Origin: a bacterium
GTDB taxonomy: Bacteria; Zhuqueibacterota; Zhuqueibacteria; Oceanimicrobiales; Oceanimicrobiaceae
DNA: 64,000 bases
Direction of reading: 5' to 3'
Assembly (NCBI GenBank): GCA_046757525.1
Contig: JBHHYI010000001.1
Span: 31,073-95,072, forward strand
The notes beneath the pieces were generated by a model. That model saw only the letters and a program-made list of their open reading frames with translations, was not told the DNA's origin and made no database searches. The position numbers and the translations under genes were made by a program. Of the stretch, positions 1,752 through 57,831 are shown in pieces. The stretch's first letter is position 1. Each line of letters begins with the position of its first letter.

Positions 1752-3011
1752 TTGAAGGCCGATTTATTAATCCAAAATGCTGAGGAGATCGCAACCGGGC
1801 AGGCGATTGCTGACTTTGCTCCGGCTAAGTGGTCGGTGTTTAAGGGAACCAGTCTCGCTGCCTTTGAGGGCAAAATCGTAGCCCTGGGGCCGAATCGCCA
1901 GGTTCAAGAAACGGTTGAAATGGCTGACAACGGGGTCACTATCGACGCTACCGGCAAAACCGTGACCCCCGGGTTCGTGGACTGCCACACACACCCAATT
2001 TTCAAAGATGCGCGTGAACAGGAGTTTGAAATGCGGGTGGTGGGAAAGAGTTACGAGGAAATTGCAGAAGCCGGTGGTGGGATTCGTGCCAGTGTTAGAA
2101 GTCTACGTCGAGCTTCCAAAGAGCAATTGGTGCAAGCAGCCCTGCCGCGCCTGGACCGCTTTCTCGCACATGGCACCACCACCATCGAAGCAAAATCGGG
2201 CTACGGGTTGACGCTTGAGGATGAAGTCAAATCGTTGGAAGTGATTGCCGAGCTGAATCGGTTGCACCCCCTCGATATCGTTCCCACCTTTTTGGGCGCA
2301 CACGAGATTCCTGATGAATATCGAGGCCAAACGGGAAAGTATCTCGAGGTGGTCATCAATGAAATGCTTCCCAGGGTTGTGGAAAACAACTTAGCTGAAT
2401 TCTGCGACATATTCTGCGAGGCCAATGTTTTCTCCACCCAGGAGGTGCGCAAACTATTTGCCGCGGCCAGGAATGCCGGTTTGAAATTAAAGATTCATGC
2501 CGACCAATTGACTGCCAACGGTGGGGCTTCGTTAGCCGCAGAATTTGGTGCCGTGTCAGCCGACCACCTGGAATACACCACAGCCGGCGATTGGGCCAAC
2601 CTGCTGCACAACCAGGTCGTTCCTGTGCTCCTGCCAGGCGCTGTTTTTTTTATCGGCAAAGACAAGTACGCCAGGGCTCGTGAGATGGTGAAGATGGGCC
2701 TACCAGTCGCTGTCGCCACCGATTTCAATCCTGGGACCTGCATGTCCGAGTCCATGCCACTCATGCTCACCTTGAGCTGTCTGAAACTGAAGCTCACACC
2801 GGCCGAAACCCTTGTGGCCGCTACCTATCACGCCGCATTAGCCATTGATCGGGGGAACTTATTGGGCACTCTTGAAGTAGGAAAAAAGGCTGATTTAGTA
2901 ATCTGGGATATTCCAAACTTTAAGCACATCCCCTATCATTTCGGTGTTAACCTGGTCAGGACCGTAATTAAGAATGGGAATATAGTTTATGAAATCCAAG
3001 ACTCCCGGTGA
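1752..3011 (+). CDS. hutI: imidazolonepropionase
   Basis: 419 aa with an amidohydrolase HxH motif (FVDCHTHPIF). Sits directly downstream of hutU. Confidence 0.9.
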   Translation: MKADLLIQNAEEIATGQAIADFAPAKWSVFKGTSLAAFEGKIVALGPNRQVQETVEMADNGVTIDATGKTVTPGFVDCHTHPIFKDAREQEFEMRVVGKSYEEIAEAGGGIRASVRSLRRASKEQLVQAALPRLDRFLAHGTTTIEAKSGYGLTLEDEVKSLEVIAELNRLHPLDIVPTFLGAHEIPDEYRGQTGKYLEVVINEMLPRVVENNLAEFCDIFCEANVFSTQEVRKLFAAARNAGLKLKIHADQLTANGGASLAAEFGAVSADHLEYTTAGDWANLLHNQVVPVLLPGAVFFIGKDKYARAREMVKMGLPVAVATDFNPGTCMSESMPLMLTLSCLKLKLTPAETLVAATYHAALAIDRGNLLGTLEVGKKADLVIWDIPNFKHIPYHFGVNLVRTVIKNGNIVYEIQDSR

Positions 3012-4218: not shown

Positions 4219-5418
4219 ATGAAAACACGCAGTTTGGTATTTTTTGTTTTGTTGCTTGGCCTGTCAACCAGCTTGAGTGCTCAATCCTTTTATTCCAGAA
4301 AGGGCATTGGTCTGGTACACTATTTTGTAAGCGGACGAAGCGTAGCCATGGGAGGCGTGGGACTGGCCTTCATAGAGCCTCTGACGGTGAACTACCTGAA
4401 TCCTGCAGCCCTGGCCGCCCTACCACTCACAACCGTTTCTGGCAATTTTTTACACCAGGCAGTCGATGTCAATGGTGCTTCACCCGATGCGTTCATATCC
4501 GATACCAACGTGGCCGGGTTGCAATTTGTTATTCCTATCAAGAAAGAGGTCATTTCAATCTCAATAGGGGCTGCCCCGTATAGCCGCATCCAATATGGCT
4601 TCAGCAATTTGGGGTCCGATGGGGAAAACTCGTACCGGGAAACCGTGTCGGGCGATGGTGGCGTCACAAGTGCCTTCTTCAGCTTGGCAGTCCGACCGGT
4701 CAAAAGATTCTATCTCGGAATCACCGGATTGTTTTATTTCGGCAGATTGAGCACTAATTGGCGCCTGGATTTCGTCAACTCGACACTGCAGGACGCGCGA
4801 GACAAAGTTTCACGTACTTTTAATGCTGGAAATTTTAGGGTTGGGGTGCTCTACAAGGTCAATTCAAGCTTGAATGTCGCAGCCGTGTTGTCCCCCTCTG
4901 TCACCCTGGACGCAAACAAAGAAGTTTCCACCCGCTTTTCAGAATTCACAGATTTCCCCAATTCAGACCTCGAACTCCCCCTGGCGTTTGGGCTGGGCAC
5001 CTCCTGGAAGCTTAGCACCAAGATTCTGCTCGGCGCAGATTATTATACGGAGTTGTGGAGCAAAAGCAATTTCCAAGATGAGGGCATTGTAAACGACAGC
5101 CAACGAATTGCCCTGGGTATCGAGTTTTTACCAAATTCATCCGTTGCGGGTTCGTATCTTAGCCGAGTCGCCTACCGGGCAGGCTTTTTTTACCGAGATT
5201 TGGGTATTGAGGATCCAATAGGAGAAAGGGTAACGGAGTTTTTTGGTTCTATCGGACTGGGCTTGCCGGTCCGCTGGCGGGCGGGTAGGATTGACCTGGC
5301 CCTCGAAGGTGGTAGGCGGGGCTCGCTGTCCTCAAATCCCATCCGAGAGACGGTCGTTCGAGTTTCCGCCAGCATCTCTGTTGGACAAAAGTGGTTCTAT
5401 CGCGGGGGACGACGGTAG
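4219..5418 (+). CDS. outer-membrane beta-barrel protein, FadL/PorV (OMPP1)-like
   Basis: Signal peptide plus an N-terminal GRSVAMGGVGLAF...NPAALAAL motif typical of FadL-family barrels. C-terminal residues are aromatic-rich. Confidence 0.5.
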   Translation: MKTRSLVFFVLLLGLSTSLSAQSFYSRKGIGLVHYFVSGRSVAMGGVGLAFIEPLTVNYLNPAALAALPLTTVSGNFLHQAVDVNGASPDAFISDTNVAGLQFVIPIKKEVISISIGAAPYSRIQYGFSNLGSDGENSYRETVSGDGGVTSAFFSLAVRPVKRFYLGITGLFYFGRLSTNWRLDFVNSTLQDARDKVSRTFNAGNFRVGVLYKVNSSLNVAAVLSPSVTLDANKEVSTRFSEFTDFPNSDLELPLAFGLGTSWKLSTKILLGADYYTELWSKSNFQDEGIVNDSQRIALGIEFLPNSSVAGSYLSRVAYRAGFFYRDLGIEDPIGERVTEFFGSIGLGLPVRWRAGRIDLALEGGRRGSLSSNPIRETVVRVSASISVGQKWFYRGGRR

Positions 5419-17979: not shown

Positions 17980-18567
17980 TTGATTACCCGATTTTCATAT
18001 TGCCTCACTTTGGTGCTGTTTATTTTTTCTTGTCATTCTCAAGAAGATGTGTCTTCTAATGCACCGGAGTTGACCGAACTGCCGGCTCAGGAAGGGTGGA
18101 ACTCCACGTTGACAACCACCAGTCAAGGAAAATTTCAAGCGGTCATAAAGTTCGAACATATGGAAAAATTTACGAAGAAAAAAGTTACCCAATTTGATCA
18201 AGGCGTTGAGATCGATTTTTACGATGACAGCGGAGCACATTCGTCAAAGGTCTACGCTGAGAATGCTACCCTGAACGACAGGAGCAAAAACGTGGAATTG
18301 GGTGGGCGTGTGGAGGTGCATGGCGACAACGGCATCATCCTGAGAACGGAAAAACTGCTTTGGAACGAAGCCAAGGGTTCCATGTCTTCAGACGAATATG
18401 TTACCATCATCACGGCGGAGAACGATTCGATGTATGGCTATGGTTTCGAATCCGGGCAGTCTTTGGAAAATTGGACCATTAGCAAGCCGTGGGGCGCCAG
18501 CCCGAAAAAGTTGAACACTGAGGCGTTGGACAAAACCACAGAATCCAACCATGGTAGCCAGAATTAG
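17980..18567 (+). CDS. LptC-like lipopolysaccharide export protein
   Basis: Signal/lipobox N-terminus, about 190 aa. Sits in the conserved position upstream of the lptA-like, lptB and rpoN genes. Confidence 0.5.
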   Translation: MITRFSYCLTLVLFIFSCHSQEDVSSNAPELTELPAQEGWNSTLTTTSQGKFQAVIKFEHMEKFTKKKVTQFDQGVEIDFYDDSGAHSSKVYAENATLNDRSKNVELGGRVEVHGDNGIILRTEKLLWNEAKGSMSSDEYVTIITAENDSMYGYGFESGQSLENWTISKPWGASPKKLNTEALDKTTESNHGSQN

Positions 18568-19633
18568 TTTGCCATTGTTGATGCTGCTCTTGCTCGACAT
18601 TCCGTTGGGACACACCCAGGAAGGTCGATTGCGCTATCGGGCTGATGTGTTCAAACGGGAGCGCGTGGGTCGACAGGTACTGCAGATTTTTGAAGGGCAC
18701 GTGAGATTTGAGCAGAATCAAACGAAAATAAGCTGTGACAAAGCCGTTCAGTATGTGGGTCTGGGCAAGACCATTCTGAGCGGTACGGTCGAGATCAATG
18801 ACAAGAACCGCACCTTGTTTGCCGATACCGTTTACTTTTATGATCGGGTGAAAATGGAGGTTGCAGTCGGCAAGGTGCGTGTGGTGGCTGATGCGGACAC
18901 GACCACGGGGAACCGCATGACATACTACGAGGCCCAGGACAGTCTGGTGTCCGAGGGTGACGTCGAAGTGATCAGCCCCAAAGAACAGACGCGGCTAACG
19001 GGTGGCTATCTCAGTTACAATAGAGCCAGCGGGGCTGGCATGGTGTTAAAAAATCCGGTTTTGATTCAATACGACAGTCTGAACACTGAGATGATGCGCA
19101 TTGTCAGTGACACCTTGGAGACTTTTGAGGGAGGCAGCCATGTTCGAGCAATTCACAACGTCGACATAAAGCAGGCAGGCATTGAAGCGACCTGCGGAAA
19201 GGCGGATTACTTCAAACCGCACGGTCTGGTAGTATTGCGGGACCATCCCAGGGCCTGGCAACGGAATCAACAAATCTCAGGCGACACGTTGGAAATCTAT
19301 TTGAAAGAGTCAAAACTGCAGCGTGCAAGGGCGTTAGGCCACGCGATCACCACCTCTGATGCCGACACTTTGAACAAGGGGCGTTGGGTCAACAAGTTGA
19401 CGGGTCAGCGCATCGATTTGTACTTTGTTGACGAAAAGCTCGAGAAAGTCATTGTAGCGGACCAGGCTACCAGCGTTTATCATATCATAGAAGACGATCA
19501 GTACAAAGGTGCTAACGAGGTTTCCGGGGACCAGATCACGCTGTTTTTGTCCGCAAAAGGCGCGGTGAGCCGGATTCATGTTGAAAGCAGTCCTGGAAGT
19601 TCTAATGGAAAATACAAACCGCCGAGCATTTGA
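18551..19633 (+). CDS. OstA/LptA-family periplasmic protein
   Basis: Signal peptide and beta-jellyroll-like repeats. Synteny with lptB-rpoN. Overlaps the previous gene by 17 nt. Confidence 0.5.
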
Positions 19634-21042
19634 AAATAAATTCAATGGTTCGAGAACACGATGGGCACAAATACTCATTCTTAAACCAGAATAAAGAGCA
19701 AGGTGATTCCCAGGAATATCGATTGGCTCCAGATTATTTGACGGCGACTTATGACAAATTGCTCAAGACTACGGAAGAAGAAGTCGGCCGATTGGTCGTA
19801 ATCAGTGATGACGATGAGTGCCGGAAATCTTTCATCTCGCTGTTGACCGGCGGATATTATGCCTCGAAGAAGATCGAGCTCATACAGTCGAAATACATTG
19901 AATTAGGGAAGGTCATAACGCACAACAAGAACAAGCTGGAGATATTCGGGATTTCTGTTGAACGGAGGTTCTTGCAAAAGTTAGAACGGATGGCAGAGAG
20001 CCTGGTTGGGTACATTCTCTTGATTGGTACCAAGAAAGCTTACGACAAAATGAGCTACTTGGGATATTTAATGAATACTCTCAGAAAGAACATCGAGGTG
20101 CCTTATGTGGTGGCGTTTGACCGTTCCCGGGACCCGCGCGGCAAGCACGTGCCGTTCATTCAACACGCTTTGCGATTAGATGAGCAGGAGCCATTTGTGG
20201 AATTCGACATACACAAAATTGCCAGTGTGAATCGTTTGTTACATGAGCTTATACCAGCTACTACCACGATGAAGATGCCAAAGACTCAAGATAGAACCCG
20301 AGAAGAAGCCCCTCCGGCCAGGTTAAGGTCGGAAAACCTGGTTAAAATTTACAAGAAGCGCAAGGTTGTAACCGGGGTCAGCGTCGAATTGAAGCAGGGG
20401 GAAATCGTTGGTTTGCTGGGACCGAACGGTGCAGGCAAAACCACAACCTTTTACATGATCACTGGCATGGTCCGGGCCAATGCGGGCAGAATATTCATCG
20501 ATGATCGGGACATTACGACCTTGCCCATGTACAAACGCGCCCGCCTGGGGATCGGTTATCTCTCGCAGGAACCTTCCATTTTCAGGAGGCTCACAGTTGA
20601 GCAGAATATCATGGCTATCCTTGAGACCATGCACCTTTCCAAAAAGGAACGCAGGAATCGCCTGGCAGAGCTGTTGGAAGAGTTGAACATTGCCCCCTTA
20701 GCCAAAAACAAGGCCTACACGCTTTCCGGCGGAGAACGTCGACGCGTGGAAATAACCCGGGCGCTGGTGACTAAGCCCAAATTCATGTTGCTCGACGAGC
20801 CCTTTGCTGGTGTGGATCCAATCGCTGTGGAAGAAATCCAAGAGATTATTCAGAAGTTGAAGCTCAGGGGCATCGGGGTGCTCGTTACAGATCACAACGT
20901 CTATGAGACGCTTTCCATTACCGATCGCGCCTATCTGATGTACGAGGGGGTTGTGCTAAAGTCTGGCACCGCGCAGTTCTTAGCCAGCGATCCCGAAGCC
21001 ATTAAACTGTACTTAGGAGAAAAGTTTCGATTGGATCGTTAG
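19630..21042 (+). CDS. lptB: LPS export ABC ATPase LptB with an about 230-aa N-terminal Ras-like pseudo-GTPase extension
   Basis: The C-terminal about 240 aa is canonical LptB (GPNGAGKTT Walker [12 protein letters not shown] signature, [10 protein letters not shown] Walker B). The frame stays open for about 700 nt upstream. Confidence 0.85.
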
Positions 21043-21092: not shown

Positions 21093-22538
21093 ATGGTAAA
21101 TTTAGTTCAAAGACTTAGCATGCAGCTAAAACAGTCGCCTCAACAGGTGCTGTTATCTTCTCTACTCCAACTTCCACTATTGAGCCTGGAGCAAAAACTA
21201 AAATATGAGCTGGAGATGAACCCGTTGCTTGAAATCGATGAAGAGATAGAAGTAGCAGAGGAAATGCAAGAAGAACCTGAACTGAATGCTGAGCTGGACG
21301 ACAAGGATCAAAGCACAGATGGGGAATTGGAGCCAAGCGAAGATGCCACCGATGATTTCGACAAAAATGAAGTTGACTGGGATGCCATATTGAATGATGA
21401 AGACAATTATGAGTTTCGCATGCCGAGAGACCATAGCGCCGAGATATTTGAACGGCCAGAAGTGGCGCAAACCACCCTGCCGGAGCACCTTTTAAGTCAG
21501 CTTCATCTGATAGATTTATCTGAGGAGGAAACGGCGATTGGGGAATATATTATCTGGAACATCAACGAAGACGGCTACCTGTCTGTTTCGCTGGAACTCA
21601 TAGCCGAAAACCTGGACCAGCCTATTGATAAGATCGAAAAGGTTTTAAGTGTAGTTCAACAACTTGATCCCGTAGGCATTGGAGCCAGGAACCTGCAAGA
21701 GTGTCTGCTCATTCAAATGCTCGACAGGAATCCGGAAGATCACATCGCCATCACCATTTTGCGCGAGCACTTCGAAGATTTTACCAACAAACGCTTTGAA
21801 AAGATCACCAAGAAAATGAATATCACGCTGGATGACATCCGTAGAGCCATGGATGAGATCACCAAACTAAACCCGAAACCCGGTGAAGGCTATGTCACCT
21901 ACCACCAGAATGTCATCATCCCCGATTTGGTCGTAGAGAGGGAGGACGGTGAGTTCAAAATCGTCATGAACGACTGGAACGTTCCCCACCTGAGGATCAA
22001 TAATTCTTACAAGCGGCTGTTGTTAGATAAGAAGCATACTTCCAAGGACACCAAGGACTACATTCGGCAAAGCCTGGAGTCTGCTCGCTGGTTGATCAAT
22101 TCAATCCATCAAAGGCGGGCGACGATCTTGCGCGTCATGGAAGCCATCATCGACAAACAAAGGCCATTCTTCGAAAGGGGCAAGGATTATCTTAAGCCGA
22201 TGATTTTGAAGGATATCGCAGATGAGATTGGCATGGATATCTCTACCATCAGCCGGGTCACCAACGGCAAGTATGTTCAGACCGAACATGGTGTGTTCGA
22301 GCTAAAATACTTCTTTAGCGAAAGAATCAAAAGCGGTACCGGCGAGGATGTCTCCAACAAGAAAATAAAAGGCTTGATTAAGGAAATGATTGCCCAAGAG
22401 GATCCGCACAAGCCATTAAACGATCAAAAGATTGCGGAGATGTTGAAGACCGAGGGCTTCAGTGTGGCGCGCAGAACTGTTGCAAAGTACCGTGAGCAAA
22501 TGATGATCCCGGTATCCCGTCTGAGGAGGAAGATTTAA
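21093..22538 (+). CDS. rpoN: RNA polymerase sigma-54 factor
   Basis: N-terminal Q/L-rich activator-interacting region and an RpoN box (ARRTVAKYRE) at the C-terminus. Confidence 0.9.
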   Translation: MVNLVQRLSMQLKQSPQQVLLSSLLQLPLLSLEQKLKYELEMNPLLEIDEEIEVAEEMQEEPELNAELDDKDQSTDGELEPSEDATDDFDKNEVDWDAILNDEDNYEFRMPRDHSAEIFERPEVAQTTLPEHLLSQLHLIDLSEEETAIGEYIIWNINEDGYLSVSLELIAENLDQPIDKIEKVLSVVQQLDPVGIGARNLQECLLIQMLDRNPEDHIAITILREHFEDFTNKRFEKITKKMNITLDDIRRAMDEITKLNPKPGEGYVTYHQNVIIPDLVVEREDGEFKIVMNDWNVPHLRINNSYKRLLLDKKHTSKDTKDYIRQSLESARWLINSIHQRRATILRVMEAIIDKQRPFFERGKDYLKPMILKDIADEIGMDISTISRVTNGKYVQTEHGVFELKYFFSERIKSGTGEDVSNKKIKGLIKEMIAQEDPHKPLNDQKIAEMLKTEGFSVARRTVAKYREQMMIPVSRLRRKI

Positions 22539-26855: not shown

Positions 26856-27141
26856 CGACAGCGAGGCGTTTCCTGAAAGCACTGTGCGAGTCATCCCGAG
26901 TAGGTCGCTGCTGTTCAAGTGACCGTATCGAGGGGTGACGGACGTCGATACGAAATTCCCCTTTTTGAAAGGGGGACGGTTTTTGAAGCGTCCAGCGAAA
27001 AAACCAGGGGGATTTTAGGAGGCGTCCTGAAAACCCAAGCTAAGGTGCTGTCGGCCAGACATCCCTCTGATTTTCGCTCTGAACGAGCGAAAATCTGTCT
27101 CCCTTCAAAGGGAGAATGGCCTCGCAAACGAGACGTTTGCG
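26856..27141 (+). repeat. structured intergenic repeat element, copy A (5' module, hairpin-rich middle, conserved 3' hairpin)
   Basis: Positions 26883-26953 are about 90% identical to 53802-53872. The 3' hairpin cgcaaacg-aga-cgtttgcg is shared with copy B. Confidence 0.6.
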
Positions 27142-27158
27142 CGACGGGCAACGGCTTC

Positions 27159-28235
27159 ATGAGTTTAAGAATCATACATATTGCCCCTTTTAACACCTCG
27201 GGTGTCCCCATGGCTCTGGTCAAAGCTGAAAGGAAGCTGGGTCACTACAGCCGCTTGGTCACCCTGGGGCGGGATTTGAGGCATTACGAAGAAGATATTT
27301 GTCTGGATTTACCATTCATGAATTCCTGGGCTACCCGGTTAGCGAAGAGAATCGTTGTCCATCCGGACAGGCTTTCCGTGCACAACAACTACAAAATGCC
27401 TGAAACGATTCCTCCGGTTTGGCAGCCCAACGGGCCGGCTGAAAAAATAGGGATCGCCCTGCGCGAGTGGCTGTGGAAACGCCGAATCGAGCAACTGTTT
27501 GAGTCGTGTGATTTTTGGAACTTCGACATTTACCAGTTGGACGGGGGGCTGGAGTTCTTCAGAAATGGCCAGACCATCAAGAAACTCAAGGCGTTGCACA
27601 AAAAAGTTATTTGCTGCTACACCGGCAGCGATTTGCGTACAAGAGGCGTTTTGCCCAACGTTGATGCCCTAACGGATCTCAATGTTACTCTGGAATTCGA
27701 CCATTTAAAACTGCATGAAAAGATTCACCACGTTTTTTTCCCCTTTGACGTCAGCAGATACGAATTAAGGGCAGAGCCCGAGGGGGCCACGATCAGGATT
27801 GGGCATGCGCCCACAAATCGCGCGGCCAAAGGCAGCGAGGTCATCATCTCTGCTATTCAGGAGCTGCAATCGGAATTCTCAGTCGACTTGGAATTGATCG
27901 AGAATTTGCCACATGAGGAAGCGCTCAAAAGGAAGGCAAGATGTCACATATTTGTGGACCAAATAGGCATGCTGGGCTACGGCATCAACTCACTCGAGGC
28001 ACTGGCTATGGGCATTCCCACGTGTTCCTGTCTGGCCCCCGGTTTTGAAAAGGAATACTCCGATCATCCTTTCATCGTCATCGATGCGTCCAACATCAAA
28101 GCACGGTTGCGAGAATTGGTGCGCAGCAGAGAATTGCGACAGGCAAAGGGTAGCCAGGGCCGGCATTGGGTGCAAACCCACCACGACAGTCTCAAGGTTG
28201 TACAGAAGATTCATGCATTGGCTGGCTTGACTTAG
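27159..28235 (+). CDS. glycosyltransferase (GT-B fold, GT4-like C-terminal domain)
   Basis: Start placed at the ATG at 27159 (MSLRIIHIAPF). C-terminal half resembles the GT4 retaining-GT nucleotide-binding domain. The upstream part of the tracked ORF is the repeat region. Confidence 0.45.
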   Translation: MSLRIIHIAPFNTSGVPMALVKAERKLGHYSRLVTLGRDLRHYEEDICLDLPFMNSWATRLAKRIVVHPDRLSVHNNYKMPETIPPVWQPNGPAEKIGIALREWLWKRRIEQLFESCDFWNFDIYQLDGGLEFFRNGQTIKKLKALHKKVICCYTGSDLRTRGVLPNVDALTDLNVTLEFDHLKLHEKIHHVFFPFDVSRYELRAEPEGATIRIGHAPTNRAAKGSEVIISAIQELQSEFSVDLELIENLPHEEALKRKARCHIFVDQIGMLGYGINSLEALAMGIPTCSCLAPGFEKEYSDHPFIVIDASNIKARLRELVRSRELRQAKGSQGRHWVQTHHDSLKVVQKIHALAGLT

Positions 28236-35381: not shown

Positions 35382-36107
35382 ATGTCTGATTCCGTGAGAG
35401 TAAAGCCTTACATTCTCAAGATCAAGAATTGGAAGATTCGCAACATGATCATGTTGTATCTCGATGCCAGGGAGAAGTTTCTCGCCTACCGCAAGATGAT
35501 TCGCAGCGGAGCTTTCTTGTCCTTTGAGCGAATAGAGGAAATCTGCGATATCTTGTTTGAAATAAAAGAGGACCACCATCTTCTGTTCAAGCGCCTTGTG
35601 GACCCAAAGAAAAAGAAATTTGAAAAGGATCATAAGATCATGCCAGGTGAAGTGGAAACAGAGTTCATGAATAATGTGGGGTTGCTGTTTCACAAGATGA
35701 TGGTTGCTAAGGAATTCAAATACCTGATGGAACGCTATTTGGAGGACAGCGACACCTTCAAGAAAAGCAGCGGTGAATTACAATACCAATTGATGAAGAT
35801 CGACAAGCTCTTTGACGATGGCATCGAGATATTGAAGACCATGATTGCTAAGTATAACGACAACATTTTGTTGCTAACGCTTTTGCTCGAGGATCCAACG
35901 AGAACCAGGAAACACTTTGGACAGAACGTCGCAGAAATCCTCGAGCAATTCGTTGGCGGCCAGGGGCTGGATGAAGTCTATTATTCTGTCGGGAAGTTTT
36001 ATGTTGAGAGTGGGTGGAAAGAGAAAGCCAAAAGCATGTTGAAAGAAGCCTTGAGAAGAAATCCTCAGCATCAGCCTGCCAGGCAACAGCTCTCTTATCT
36101 GATGTAG
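35382..36107 (+). CDS. hypothetical protein (helical, TPR-like C-terminus)
   Basis: Long open frame with coding-like composition. No recognisable catalytic motif. Confidence 0.4.
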   Translation: MSDSVRVKPYILKIKNWKIRNMIMLYLDAREKFLAYRKMIRSGAFLSFERIEEICDILFEIKEDHHLLFKRLVDPKKKKFEKDHKIMPGEVETEFMNNVGLLFHKMMVAKEFKYLMERYLEDSDTFKKSSGELQYQLMKIDKLFDDGIEILKTMIAKYNDNILLLTLLLEDPTRTRKHFGQNVAEILEQFVGGQGLDEVYYSVGKFYVESGWKEKAKSMLKEALRRNPQHQPARQQLSYLM

Positions 36108-38525: not shown

Positions 38526-40328
38526 TTGAACCCCAAGAGCACTTTGCATCCGAGAGAAATCAAAAACGTGTCCATTAACCACGAGGAGCTTTCGATTGAA
38601 AAATTGTTGTCCGTTTCAAGATACTTTGCCAGAGTGGCGCCCTTCGAGGGGCCGAAACGACAAAAAGTGGATGCTGTGCGGAAATATGTGGAAGAGAACT
38701 GGCTCAGTGACTCAGCCCAACCACGCTACGGATTCAACACTGGCATCGGTTCTTTGAAAGGCGTCAAGATATCGCAGGACAACATCGAGAAATTTCAGCA
38801 GCATTACGTCAAGTCCCACAGCGTGGGCGTCGGAGAGCCTCTGGCCGTCGAAATCGTACGAGGGGCCATGCTCATTCAGGCCAACGCCCTGTCCATGGGT
38901 TTTTCCGGCGTCAGAGCTTTGGTCGTCGACAAACTCATCGAGATGCTGAACAAGAAGGTTCATCCGGTGGTGCCGGAGCAAGGCTCTTTGGGAGCCAGCG
39001 GCGACCTGGCACCTCTCACACACATAGCGTCCGTGCTGGTGGGGGAGGACGACGCTGAAATCTGGATCGGCTCCAGGCGCGCGAAAATCAGTGAGCTCAC
39101 AGAGGCTTCCGGTGCCATTTCGTTCGAGCAAGAAGGCCGCACCATTTCCTTTGAACCCATTCGGTTGCAGGGCAAAGAGGCGGTGTCCCTTACCAATTCC
39201 ACGGCAGTCATGCTTGCCGTTGCCGCCCATTTGGTCTTTGATGCCGAGGTGGTGTTGAAAAATGCGGACATCTCTGGTGCCTTGAGCCTCGAGGCCATGA
39301 TGTGCGAAGCCAGCGCCTTTTCCGAGGATTTGCACCGACTGAGAAATCAGGTTGGCCAGATTAACACGGCAAAAAACATCAGCGCTCTGGTTCAGAACAG
39401 CAAGCGCATGACTTCCGAGGCCCGTCTTCAGTACTTTCAGACAACGACCGGGAGGCAGTTGAACGAGAAACTGAAAGACTCTCCCCTGAAGGAATTTGTT
39501 TCAGAAATTAGCCGGTATAAGAAGGAGCATGAGTTTGAGAAGGATCGGATTCAGGATGCCTATTCGCTGCGGTGCATCCCTCAGGTGCATGGTGCTTGCA
39601 AGGACGCTTTCAATTACGTTAAGAACATCGTAAATCTGGAGTTAAGCGCCGTGACGGATAATCCTGTCATTTTCCCAGAAAGGAGGGAGGATGGGTTTGT
39701 GGCCAGAAGCGGCGGCAATTTTCACGGCGAACCGTTAGCCCTGGCCATGGATTTCCTCAGCATTGCGCTATCCGAAATTGGCAGCATTGCTGAAAGGCGC
39801 CTGTTTCGGATGCTGAGTCCCGGCATGAGCTTTGGCCTGCCGAGAAATCTTTCCGGCGGTGAGGTTGGCGTCAATTCGGGCTACATGATTGTTCAGTACA
39901 CAGCCGCGCAACTCGTGGCGGAAAACAAAATCCTGGCTCACCCCGCCAGCGTCGACAGCATTCCGACCTCAGACAACCAGGAAGACCACGTCAGCATGGG
40001 GCTCACCGCGGCCAGAAAATGTCTAAGGATCGCAAAAAATGTTCAGTACCTGATTGCCATGGAGTACCTTTGTGCGGTGCAGGGGTTGCACCTGAGTGCC
40101 CTGGAGGCTTCCGTCAATTTTGAGAAATTTCCTCTGGGCGCTGGAACGACCCTGGCATTTGATTTTCTCAGGAATTGGAAGATAAAATCCGGAAACAGCG
40201 AAAAATACCCGTTCCAGCTCATGCGGGACGATGAATATGTCAAGACAAAAATCGAAATCATGCGAGCGTTGTGTGCCGAAGGCACCATCGTGAATGAAGT
40301 TGAAAAAAGGGTTAAACTTTTAGTGTAA
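38526..40328 (+). CDS. hutH: MIO-dependent aromatic/histidine ammonia-lyase (probable histidase)
   Basis: GSLGASGDLAPLTH MIO-forming Ala-Ser-Gly motif. 600 aa, longer than typical HAL. Confidence 0.75.
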   Translation: MNPKSTLHPREIKNVSINHEELSIEKLLSVSRYFARVAPFEGPKRQKVDAVRKYVEENWLSDSAQPRYGFNTGIGSLKGVKISQDNIEKFQQHYVKSHSVGVGEPLAVEIVRGAMLIQANALSMGFSGVRALVVDKLIEMLNKKVHPVVPEQGSLGASGDLAPLTHIASVLVGEDDAEIWIGSRRAKISELTEASGAISFEQEGRTISFEPIRLQGKEAVSLTNSTAVMLAVAAHLVFDAEVVLKNADISGALSLEAMMCEASAFSEDLHRLRNQVGQINTAKNISALVQNSKRMTSEARLQYFQTTTGRQLNEKLKDSPLKEFVSEISRYKKEHEFEKDRIQDAYSLRCIPQVHGACKDAFNYVKNIVNLELSAVTDNPVIFPERREDGFVARSGGNFHGEPLALAMDFLSIALSEIGSIAERRLFRMLSPGMSFGLPRNLSGGEVGVNSGYMIVQYTAAQLVAENKILAHPASVDSIPTSDNQEDHVSMGLTAARKCLRIAKNVQYLIAMEYLCAVQGLHLSALEASVNFEKFPLGAGTTLAFDFLRNWKIKSGNSEKYPFQLMRDDEYVKTKIEIMRALCAEGTIVNEVEKRVKLLV

Positions 40329-54756: not shown

Positions 54757-55224
54757 TTGATTGTGAGATTCTCTAAGAAGGACATCGACAAAATTGGCAA
54801 GGTGTTAGGCGTTCAAGCCAAGCTTTGGGGAAACAATTATCGCTTTATGCTCGAAAACAGAGAGGCCGGCAGAAAGCTTTCCTTGGAAATCTATCCTAAC
54901 ATTCCAATCGGCAAACAGACCGGAAACCTGGTCAGCGTTTACACCCACAACTCCCATTTGCAGCTTCACTTTTGCACCGGATACGTCGTCAGTGAGATGT
55001 TGGGTGAGGTTACTTTTGTAGGCGAGTTTCAAGGACGCCTCTCGGGTCTGATTATCGAAAAAGAGGCGGGCTGTTCTCTCTACGCCAATGTTGATTCAAA
55101 TCTTCTTTCCGGCGATCTCACGAAACTTGGCCCAGAAGTCATGCTTTCCGGCATTGCTTTATCTCTTACCGAAGGCATTCTGCCGGGCGGAGAGGAGGCA
55201 CATTCCGAAGAAAGAGAATCTTAA
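54757..55224 (+). CDS. hypothetical protein
   Basis: 155-aa open frame between csp and the xerD-like gene. No recognisable motif. Confidence 0.35.
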   Translation: MIVRFSKKDIDKIGKVLGVQAKLWGNNYRFMLENREAGRKLSLEIYPNIPIGKQTGNLVSVYTHNSHLQLHFCTGYVVSEMLGEVTFVGEFQGRLSGLIIEKEAGCSLYANVDSNLLSGDLTKLGPEVMLSGIALSLTEGILPGGEEAHSEERES

Positions 55225-55293
55225 CACCCGGCATTGATACTGGTGACGAGATCGCATGGCGTCGATGGCAATCTCTTTTTGAAGAATAATGGG

Positions 55294-56220
55294 ATGTTGA
55301 ATTACTTAGACGAATTCCTGAACTTTCTCCGGGTTGAAAAGAATGCCGCTGCCAACACCGTCCAGTCCTACCAGAATGATCTGAATCGCTATTTGAGTTT
55401 TCTGGCGGATAGGGGCTTTGCCAATTTGGAAGATGTCAAAGCCGCAGATATTCTCTCCTTGATCAATAGCTTGCACCAGTTGGGTTTTGCTTCCGCCAGC
55501 AACGCCAGAAATTTATCCGCCATCCGAATGTTCCACCGTTTTTTGCTTGGAGAAGGCCACGTAAAAGTCGATCCTACCCTGAACATTAGCTTCCCCAAGC
55601 TGTCGAAAAAGCTGCCCGCAGTCCTGACTCAACCGGAAATCGAATCCATTTTGAGCCAACCGGTTCTTTCCACGAAAAAGGGTCTGCGCGACAAGGCGAT
55701 GTTGGAGTTCTTGTACGCTACCGGAACACGGGTTTCGGAGCTGATCGCCACTCGTTGTCAGGATTTGTTTTTTGCCGAGGGATTCATTCGAGTGGTGGGA
55801 AAAGGGTCGAAGGAACGCATCGTCCCCATTGGCGAGCAAGCTATATTCTACACGACCTCCTATTTAACGCAAGTGCGGTGTCACGTAGCCCAGAGAGGTC
55901 TCAGCAAGGATGTGGTGTTCTTGAATTTCCGCGGCAAGCCGCTTTCGAGGATGGGTGTCTGGAAGGTCCTGCGTGCTTATGTCGTCAAGGCGGGCATTAC
56001 GAAAAAAGTTTCGCCGCATACGTTCAGGCACTCGTTTGCTACCCATCTCATAGAAGGGGGAGCTGACCTGCGTGCTGTGCAGGAAATGCTGGGCCATGCG
56101 GATATTTCCACAACGCAAATCTACACGCACCTGGATCGTGAGTACCTGAAAGAGGTGCATCGGCTGTTTCATCCCCTGGAAAAGTATGGCAACAAAGCGA
56201 AGAGGGTGTTACAAACATGA
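55294..56220 (+). CDS. tyrosine site-specific recombinase (XerD-like)
   Basis: R...HxxR...Y catalytic set (HTFRHSFATHL, LGHADISTTQIYTHL). Confidence 0.8.
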   Translation: MLNYLDEFLNFLRVEKNAAANTVQSYQNDLNRYLSFLADRGFANLEDVKAADILSLINSLHQLGFASASNARNLSAIRMFHRFLLGEGHVKVDPTLNISFPKLSKKLPAVLTQPEIESILSQPVLSTKKGLRDKAMLEFLYATGTRVSELIATRCQDLFFAEGFIRVVGKGSKERIVPIGEQAIFYTTSYLTQVRCHVAQRGLSKDVVFLNFRGKPLSRMGVWKVLRAYVVKAGITKKVSPHTFRHSFATHLIEGGADLRAVQEMLGHADISTTQIYTHLDREYLKEVHRLFHPLEKYGNKAKRVLQT

Positions 56221-56241
56221 AGGACAACGATTGTTTTAGCC

Positions 56242-57831
56242 ATGTCGAAAGTCTCTGAGCGCAAAAAAATATTTACTACCGATTCCGGCATTAAAGTCAA
56301 AGCTGTCTACGACGAGGCAGATGTCGCAGACTCCAAGGGTCTGCTGGGCTTTCCTGGAGCGTATCCCTTCACTCGCGGGATTTATTCCAATATGTATCGC
56401 GGCCGATTTTGGAGCATGCGGCAATATGGCGGTTTTGGTACGGCAAAGGAAACCAACCAAAGATTCAAGTATTTGCTGGATAACGGACAAACGGGCCTGT
56501 CGGTCGCCTTTGATCTGCCTACCCAAATGGGTTTCGATTCGGACTCCCCGCTGGCAGAAGGCGAAGTGGGGAAGGCAGGCGTGGCGATCGATAGCCTCAG
56601 GGACATGGAGATTCTGTTCCAGGATATACCGCTGGAGAAAATAACCACGTCCATGACCATCAACGCTACTGCTGCCATTCTTCTGGCCCTTTATGTGGCC
56701 ATCGCCAGGAAGCAGGGTGCAGATTTGAAACGAATCAGCGGCACGATTCAAAATGACATTCTCAAAGAATACATCGCTCGCTCGACTTACATTTATCCGC
56801 CGGAGCCCTCGATGCGAATCGTGACCGACATTTTTGAGTATTGCAAAGACCACCTGCCGCGCTGGAACACGATCTCCATAAGCGGCTACCACATCCGCGA
56901 GGCTGGTGCCAATGCCATCCAGGAGTTGGCGTTTACCTTTGCCAATGCCATCGCCTACATTGAGGCGGCCCTGAAGCGCGGTTTGAATGTGGATGAATTT
57001 GGCGGTCGGTTGTCCTATTTCTTTGCCTGTCATAACAATTTTTTTGAAGAAATTGCCAAATTCCGGGCGGCGCGTCGTATTTATGCAACCATTATGAAGG
57101 AAAGATTCAACGCTGCCAGGCCGAAGACCCTGATGCTGCGGTTCCATACGCAAACAGGTGGGTCCACCTTGACCGCGCAACAACCGGATAACAACATCAT
57201 TCGGGTGGCGTTGCAGGCCCTCGCCGCTGTTTTGGGCGGCACGCAGTCGTTGCACACCAACTCCAAAGACGAAGCGCTGGCGCTCCCGACCGAGGAGGCC
57301 GTACGCATCGCCTTGCGAACCCAGCAAATCATCGCTCATGAATCGGGCGTGGCCGACACCGTCGATCCGCTGGGGGGGAGCTATTTTCTGGAATCCCTGA
57401 CCCAAGAAATCGAGTCCAAAGTGTGGGGATATCTTGACCGAATCCAGAAGTTGGGAGGGGCGGTAAAAGCCATTGAAGAGCACTATTTTCAGGAGGAGAT
57501 CAGCAGAAGCGCCTACAAATATCAGAAAGAGATCGAGGCGAATGATAGAATCATCGTGGGCGTGAATGAATTTGTTCATGAAGAGAAAGAACCTCAATCA
57601 ATTTTGCGCGTCGATCCCTCGGTCCGCAGCGAACAAATAGCTGCCCTGAAAAAATTAAGAGCCGATAGAGATACTGGCAAAGTCGAGCGTTTGCTGGCAG
57701 AATTGAGAACGGCTGCGCAAGGCTCTGAAAATCTCATGCCCAAGATTCTGGCCTGTGTCGAAGGTTACGTAACCCTGGGAGAAATCTCTGACACCTTGCG
57801 AGAAGTCTTCGGCAGCTACAGCGAAAGCTGA
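56242..57831 (+). CDS. methylmalonyl-CoA mutase-family catalytic (TIM-barrel) subunit, no B12-binding domain in this ORF
   Basis: 529 aa matching the MCM large-subunit N-terminal domain ([24 protein letters not shown]). Confidence 0.85.

Follow-up and report, generated by a model that had tools for sequence, protein, structure and literature searches.

The lipopolysaccharide (LPS) exporter LptB2FG is an essential machine and a drug target, and MalK, MetN, and ModC are examples of ATP-binding cassette (ABC) ATPases that have accessory regulatory domains. We searched the literature and found no description of a GTPase-like or accessory signaling domain on LptB. We analyzed a stretch of 64,000 nucleotides of contig JBHHYI010000001.1 (assembly GCA_046757525.1, positions 31,073 to 95,072), referred to as a whole as the window, in which a single open reading frame (ORF) very probably encodes an LptB with a pseudoGTPase-like domain at its N terminus. 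Coordinates are window positions unless a contig is named.

Class i pseudoGTPases are defined experimentally by the absence of both nucleotide binding and hydrolysis, and those of eukaryotes act as protein-binding modules (PMC12490416). AAGAB psGD and p190RhoGAP pG1/pG2 are class i domains from unrelated eukaryotic lineages, and the lack of nucleotide binding is experimental there and inferred here. PATAN is an output domain that binds the ATPase motor PilB1 (bioRxiv 10.1101/2021.06.11.447907), and MglA-type genes are sometimes encoded beside PATAN genes (PMC4316618).

The protein encoded in the window shares features with several of these systems and differs from each. It shares with LptB (TIGR04406; Escherichia coli LptB) an end-to-end match, the ABC motifs, and the position in lptC-lptA-lptB-rpoN, and differs from plain LptBs, which are mostly 258-279 residues, by approximately 230 extra N-terminal residues. 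The extra domain is homologous (34-37% identity) to the C-terminal domain of REC-PATAN (DUF4388) proteins from uncultivated bacteria, and has the same degenerate P-loop, preceding helix, GxSxE, and YxxYL. In the REC-PATAN proteins, however, the domain is C-terminal and follows REC, PATAN, and a long disordered linker, whereas here it precedes an ABC ATPase, in a protein that has no REC or PATAN. The best structural matches are the MglA, Arf, Sar1, and SRbeta GTPases, and members of the domain family that have an intact P-loop exceed the Pfam Arf threshold; in contrast, the window domain is without G1 and G4 and only the Gly of G3 remains. Unlike the MglA-MglB module, there is no adjacent Roadblock/MglB gene in the window or on L013, a contig with an orthologue of the fusion. 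The extra domains of MalK, MetN, and ModC are likewise on the nucleotide-binding subunit and potentially regulate the ATPase cycle, but they are C-terminal, have other folds, and bind small ligands or regulatory proteins.

The fusion open reading frame and its operon

The fusion consists of the following parts.
19630..21042, + strand: whole fusion ORF (pseudoGTPase domain, linker, and LptB), 470 residues plus stop
19630..19722, + strand: leader, residues 1-31, non-conserved (direct sequence reading); the L013 orthologue starts at the equivalent of about residue 27
19723..19767, + strand: amphipathic helix before strand beta1, residues 32-46 (AlphaFold2 helix H5-15; predicted local distance difference test, pLDDT, 86-94)
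19783..20253, + strand: domain with a small-GTPase fold, residues 52-208, six strands and five helices
20254..20322, + strand: linker, residues 209-231, non-conserved and modeled with low confidence (pLDDT 57-58), containing M214 and M216
20323..21042, + strand: LptB ABC ATPase core, residues 232-470, with all catalytic motifs present

Judged by equivalog score, motifs, and gene context, residues 232-468 are a bona fide LptB. They match model positions 2-239 of the 239 in TIGR04406 with 362.5 bits (8e-109; the cut-off is 240 bits). The Walker A (264-272), Q-loop, signature LSGGERRR (365-372), Walker B FMLLDEP (385-391), and H-loop TDHNV are all intact. The only Pfam domain seen in the fusion protein was ABC_tran, at residues 248-393.

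The fusion ORF is real and coding throughout. There were no in-frame stops across the 230 codons upstream of the LptB core, compared to 8-16 in each of the other five frames, and the chance of such a stop-free stretch, computed from the base composition of the segment, is approximately 8e-7. Using a codon-usage score trained on the long genes of the window, the N-terminal segment had a log-odds of 0.35 in frame, close to the mean for the window genes (0.39, sd 0.08), and -0.58 to 0.01 in the other five frames. These results agree with the original prediction, made from the sequence of the window, that LptB is the tail of one 470-codon open frame and that the open stretch before it would be very unlikely by chance. 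The GC content given there (52%) holds for the LptB core and lptA (52-53%) but not for the N-terminal segment (45-46%). GC content at third codon positions was also lowest in the N-domain segment (0.55 for 19630-20320, compared to 0.64 for the LptB core at 20320-21040 and 0.61 for lptA), which fits either a different origin or weaker constraint.

The fusion was also found in an independently assembled contig (Logan contig L003, from SRR29324609), which has the identical 470-residue ORF. The only difference from the window in 5956 nt was a synonymous third-position change at window position 20064. An assembly frameshift that merged two genes, a concern raised with the original prediction, is very unlikely because independent assemblies and four lineages keep the fusion in frame.

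The true start of the ORF is uncertain. The candidates are TTG at 19630, which overlaps the stop of the lptA-like gene, ATG at 19645, and TTG at 19723, which follows AGGAA. Conservation with the syntenic orthologue on L013 does not extend to the first approximately 30 residues. We found no promoter-like or terminator-like site between the N-domain and LptB halves. A short isoform may be made in addition to the long protein.

The flanking genes have the order lptC-lptA-lptB-rpoN, as originally described, based on the domain matches of the neighbors.
17980..18567, + strand: lptC (Pfam LptC, 1.2e-11)
18551..19633, + strand: lptA-like gene, 360 residues (Pfam LptD_N and OstA_2); its stop overlaps the TTG at 19630
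21093..22538, + strand: rpoN (Sigma54 AID, CBD, and DBD domains)
Neither lptF nor lptG is present in the 64-kb window. The lptA-like product is roughly twice as long as E. coli LptA and contains two OstA/LptD_N-like segments (residues 74-166 and 197-253). This length is kept on three related contigs described below (L013, L016, and L017; 356-361 residues).

The N-terminal domain and its relatives

The N-terminal domain is predicted to have a Ras/MglA-like fold, as the original prediction had proposed for these approximately 230 codons. AlphaFold with a family alignment gave a confident model of the N-domain with a pLDDT of 89.8 and a predicted template modeling (TM) score of 0.85. The top match of this model in a Foldseek search of the PDB was Thermus MglA (9.2e-7, TM 0.60), and Arl1 and Arf1 had TM scores of 0.62-0.63. 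There were 854 PDB matches at E < 1e-3, and all 50 of the 50 matches listed were Ras-superfamily proteins, with sequence identity to solved GTPases of only 9-14%. In alignments, the helix at residues 32-46 is conserved in both the fused and the REC-PATAN relatives.

The positions of the nucleotide motifs and of the family signature are as follows.
19804..19827, + strand: P-loop (G1) position, SDDDECRK, residues 59-66, aligned with relatives that have an intact P-loop
19939..19971, + strand: switch II equivalent, residues 104-114, with ExxG-I instead of DxxGQ
20056..20070, + strand: family signature YLGYL in helix alpha3, residues 143-147 (Y143 in 94% and Y146 in 96% of 82 sequences)
20119..20130, + strand: G4 ([NT]KxD) position, DRSR, residues 164-167, aligned with TKLD of relative P0027 and without the motif

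The residues for binding and hydrolyzing GTP have been lost at the G1, G3, and G4 positions. Compared to GxxxxGK[ST], SDDDECRK has neither of the two glycines, the Lys is replaced by Arg, and the Ser/Thr by Lys; the corresponding segments in the other fusions are SDQEEARK, SHDQRERQ, and SDDHRERI. In more distant relatives, beta1 ends in a canonical P-loop, such as GTLESGKT (P0028), GGKTCGKT (P0039), GFPGSGKT, and GLPGSGKS. The intact P-loop stretch of P0028, KILVLGTLESGKTE, aligns column for column with the window segment, which supports both the earlier placement of the P-loop strand and the claim that acidic residues replace GxxxxGKS/T. The G3 position reads EIFGI and differs from DxxGQ (TxxGQ in MglA): the Gly is kept, the Asp is Glu, and the catalytic Gln is Ile. 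GISVERRF was correctly recognized as switch II, since it aligns with DTAGQERF of Rab in a profile search. Two other assignments in the original prediction had to be revised. YILLIGTKK, taken to be the NKxD element, is strand beta4 after switch II, and VVAFDRSR, taken to be SAK, is beta5 plus the NKxD (G4) position; SAK falls near FVEFDIHK.

The most conserved polar positions in the family are in switch II and alpha3 (G107, S109, E111, Y143, and Y146) and not in the nucleotide motifs, whose positions vary freely across the clade. Together, the sequence and the model indicate that the N-domain very probably belongs to the Arf/MglA-like branch of small GTPases and has been stripped of the residues for GTP binding and hydrolysis. 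With G1, G3, and G4 all defective, it is better not classified as a GTPase. It looks like a candidate class i pseudoGTPase, with the fold present and the G-motif residues gone, a class assignment in which the lack of nucleotide binding is inferred.

Relatives of the N-domain were detectable by exhaustive searching. Searches of Pfam, NCBIfam, and PDB sequences with the N-domain alone gave nothing meaningful, and a word-index protein search, with the domain as a single sequence or as a profile, found no relatives. An exhaustive phmmer search of 1.84 billion representative proteins (E <= 1e-3) found 80 relatives, the best at 9e-33, with 25 proteins between 9e-33 and 1e-10. In nearly all of them the domain is at the C-terminal end of a protein of 500-900 residues. 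DUF4388 (PATAN) was present in 49 of the 80, Response_reg in 33, Arf in seven, Roc in three, and Ras in one, and one close relative is labeled 'CheY-like chemotaxis protein/signal recognition particle receptor subunit beta' in IMG. A hidden Markov model of the family scored 1.6e-52 on the window ORF and also detected the N-domain in all of the other fusions. By alignment, the N-domain is a whole-domain homologue of the REC-PATAN C-terminal domain, including the signatures GxSxE, GY, YxxYL, and P. The family of PATAN-linked degenerate G-domains seems uncharacterized beyond an automatic COG-style name (COG2229-like in IMG).

Two further comparisons connect this family to GTPases. Five relatives with an intact P-loop exceed the Pfam Arf gathering threshold of 22.3 bits, with 24.5-31.3 bits (31.1 for P0039 and 31.3 for P0060). 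A profile of 34 domains compared to PDB sequences matched mostly small or related GTPases (Rab, Sar1, Arl, SRbeta, dynamin-like, and septin) and a few unrelated proteins; all of these matches were weak (best E 0.007), and the top alignments kept register between the P-loop strand and beta4/beta5. Two genome-level scans added nothing to the family. The one locus from a scan of GTDB genomes (L001) was spurious, due to an octapeptide shared with a non-coding frame of a hydrogenase locus, and a metagenome scan with a two-sequence alignment gave no loci.

LptB proteins with the same extension were found in three other lineages (P0085 on L013, P0086, and P0014 on contig L002). We used the full protein to search a collection of 5.8 billion proteins and analyzed the 120 best matches. 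The long matches were the window's own cluster, P0085 (62% identical), and P0086 (465 residues, 56% identical). Nearly all of the others were plain LptBs of 258-279 residues, up to 82% identical over the core, and the closest of these (79-82% identical) include some named 'candidate division KSB1' or 'Calditrichaeota'. The exhaustive phmmer search contributed P0014, which has the same architecture as the window protein. We conclude that the LptB-pseudoGTPase architecture is a rare fusion carried by a small number of uncultivated lineages related to KSB1 and Calditrichota.

The genomic contexts of the other three fusions differ. P0085 is a complete ORF of 447 residues that starts with the conserved helix, LAPAALLATYETLLK, on the 38-kb contig L013. 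This contig shows complete synteny with the window, running PHP - lactamase_B - HD - RNase G - ... - pyrG - lptC - lptA - fusion - rpoN - hslV - hslU - OTCase - FemAB-like. P0086 is identical on two contigs from two sequencing runs (L014 and L015), where the gene is isolated after a 650-nt gap. The fusion gene on L002 is not beside lptA or rpoN and has an HDOD/HD gene downstream on the opposite strand. It has a one-base frameshift in the LptB part (L002:1590-1625; GYLSQDLQSFAD*, then IFRGLTVEQN in another frame), reflecting either an error in sequencing or decay of this copy. The linkers of these three fusions have no Met equivalent to Met214 or Met216 of the window protein and, because of this, their LptB part must be translated as a fusion.

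The four fused N-domains have diverged much further than the LptB cores, with 27-45% mutual identity compared to 72-83%. Despite this divergence, the hydrophobic core, G107/S109/E111, G127-Y128, Y143/Y146/L147, and P158 are retained, as expected if purifying selection maintains a folded domain.

Plain lptB genes occupy the same position in equally close relatives. Contigs L016 and L017 have an lptB of 260-265 residues directly after lptA and the same pyrG-lptC-lptA-lptB-rpoN-hslVU-OTCase-FemAB synteny. Judged by the neighboring proteins, L017 (plain) is as close to the window as L013 (fused).
RpoN identity to the window: L013 (fused) 80%, L017 (plain) 80%
HslU identity to the window: L013 (fused) 82%, L017 (plain) 83.5%
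PyrG identity to the window: L013 (fused) 75%, L017 (plain) 78%
With the plain L016 and L017 sharing this synteny and L017 equally close, the comparison identifies the N-domain as a lineage-specific insertion that lengthens the 5' end of lptB by approximately 210 codons in an otherwise conserved operon.

A different N-terminal extension was seen in P0159, a protein of 437 residues from an ENA metagenome that was also among the matches to the full protein. Its LptB part is 72% identical to the window core and is preceded by a TPR-repeat region of approximately 180 residues. This would be a second, unrelated protein-interaction module on the N terminus of LptB; it is present on a single contig and could be an artefact.

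The fused domains appear to have come from a REC-PATAN gene. In a neighbor-joining tree, the four fused domains formed one clade, ((window, L013), (P0086, P0014)), nested within the clade of REC-PATAN domains with a degenerate P-loop. This provisionally suggests that the domain was captured once from a REC-PATAN gene and was afterwards inherited patchily or lost.

The parent system has a recurring gene order. Using the family pattern, we found nine metagenomic loci (L004-L012), and the more complete of these (L004-L006 and L008-L010) share an arrangement of a REC-PATAN-linker-pseudoGTPase gene (approximately 634 residues), a second REC-PATAN gene (approximately 415 residues), a standalone pseudoGTPase paralogue (161-187 residues), and a cystathionine-beta-synthase-like gene that has a CBS domain. 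An example is L005:2678-6347. The second REC-PATAN protein is without the pseudoGTPase domain and has an Arg-rich tail, and the standalone paralogue also has a degenerate P-loop (IVGPGIRPMQ). PATAN and the pseudoGTPase domain thus occur both fused and as neighbors, a Rosetta-stone pattern that is a classic signature of parts that work together.

Proposed function and alternatives

We favor, as the probable explanation, that the protein is an LptB with a captured Arf/MglA-type pseudoGTPase domain of approximately 175 residues that docks the exporter to a signaling partner. The N-domain would no longer be switched by GTP, and would instead be a constitutive docking module on each LptB protomer, joined to LptB by a flexible linker of approximately 22 residues. 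We propose a fixed binding surface because the nucleotide motifs are gone and variable, whereas conservation peaks at the switch II/alpha3 surface. The fused and split arrangements in REC-PATAN loci, the binding of PATAN to PilB1, the proximity of MglA-type and PATAN genes, and the protein-binding role of class i pseudoGTPases also favor docking. This surface would tie LptB2FG to the partner. Taken by itself, a role for the N-domain as a protein-protein docking module is quite possible, and we put it forward tentatively.

The most plausible partner would be a PATAN-domain response regulator or a paralogous pseudoGTPase, because of the REC-PATAN ancestry of the N-domain, and LPS export could thereby be modulated or localized by a phospho-relay. 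That the partner is specifically a PATAN protein is doubtful. We likewise regard as a speculative, rather improbable idea that a REC-PATAN regulator or standalone pseudoGTPase paralogue binds the pseudoGTPase domain of LptB and so switches or spatially restricts LptB2FG. If true, this would be a post-translational signaling input of a kind undescribed for the Lpt machine, coming from a bacterial Ras-like pseudo-switch. The broader suggestion in the original prediction, a coupling of LPS export to some regulatory input through the domain, is plausible and gains some support because the domain originates in REC-PATAN signaling proteins.

Several points count against this explanation. Genes for PATAN, Roadblock, or a second pseudoGTPase were not found in the 64-kb window. 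A single-sequence AlphaFold2 model of the full-length fusion had a pLDDT of 32 and was uninformative about contacts between the domains. The neighbor-joining tree carries no support values, and the LptB cores are too conserved to show that the fused lineages are monophyletic. All four lineages that carry the fusion are metagenomic, including the one that is frameshifted in the LptB part. Lastly, an Arg at the position of the Walker Lys is common to all four fusions, such that nucleotide binding is possible on sequence.

The strongest competing explanation is that the domain acts in cis. The N-domains would contact each other or the nucleotide-binding domains of the exporter and tune the closure of the latter, either by auto-inhibition or by activation, with no external partner. 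LptB acts as a dimer, nucleotide-binding domains with accessory domains exist among ABC ATPases (MalK, MetN, and ModC), and G-domains often dimerize. In addition, the flexible linker permits the domain to fold back, and there is no partner gene nearby. However, the regulatory domains known from ABC ATPases have other folds and lie at the C terminus, and the parent domain ends long disordered linkers in signaling proteins and has a standalone paralogue, both of which point to interaction in trans. Based on these considerations, we believe that a cis-acting clamp is unlikely.

It is less likely still that the domain is a nucleotide-dependent switch with a non-canonical pocket, through which the level of GTP or ATP gates LPS export. 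The basic Arg65 shared by the fusions and the retained G3 glycine, G107, are consistent with such a pocket, and some so-called pseudoGTPases, of which there are several classes, still bind nucleotide (PMC12490416). However, the P-loop glycines and Ser/Thr are gone, SDDDECRK contains four acidic residues, the catalytic Gln and NKxD are missing, and the motif positions are free to vary across the clade.

We think it very improbable that the N-domain is a neutral or decaying appendage, captured in frame by accident and without function, with LptB working despite it. Its much faster divergence compared to the core, the equally close relatives that do without it, and a GC content below that of the flanking genes would all be compatible with this. 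On the other hand, four lineages have each kept an open frame of more than 200 codons while diverging to approximately 30% identity, the hydrophobic core and signature residues are kept, and the model of the domain is confident. Within an essential gene, an insert that serves no function should decay or vanish. Most improbable of all is an artefact or an untranslated region, in which two genes were merged or only an internal start at Met214 is used: a start at Met214/Met216 would yield a normal LptB of 257 residues, and neither TTG 19630 nor ATG 19645 has a clear Shine-Dalgarno sequence, but the same ORF is in an independent assembly, three other lineages are in frame with linkers devoid of Met, and the open, gene-like N-terminal segment has no promoter-like or terminator-like site separating it from LptB.

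The fusion bears on both LPS transport and bacterial GTPase biology. A conserved, folded Ras-like pseudo-switch on LptB would be a natural pointer to control of LPS export by protein-protein signaling. The family of degenerate MglA/Arf-like domains attached to PATAN is sizeable, and could show how PATAN modules find their targets.

Other features of the window

No tRNA, tmRNA, or Rfam family was detected across the 64-kb window. Four ORFs of 155-438 residues (4219-5418, 26919-28235, 35382-36107, and 54757-55224) had no Pfam match at E <= 1e-5 and are in housekeeping surroundings. Genes for histidine utilization are dispersed, with urocanase at 6-1637, an amidohydrolase at 1752-3011, and an aromatic amino-acid ammonia-lyase at 38526-40328. 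A tyrosine recombinase (XerC/D-like; 55234-56220) is just upstream of methylmalonyl-CoA mutase. A 453-residue antisense ORF (56236-57597, - strand) lies wholly within the methylmalonyl-CoA mutase gene and is probably a shadow ORF.

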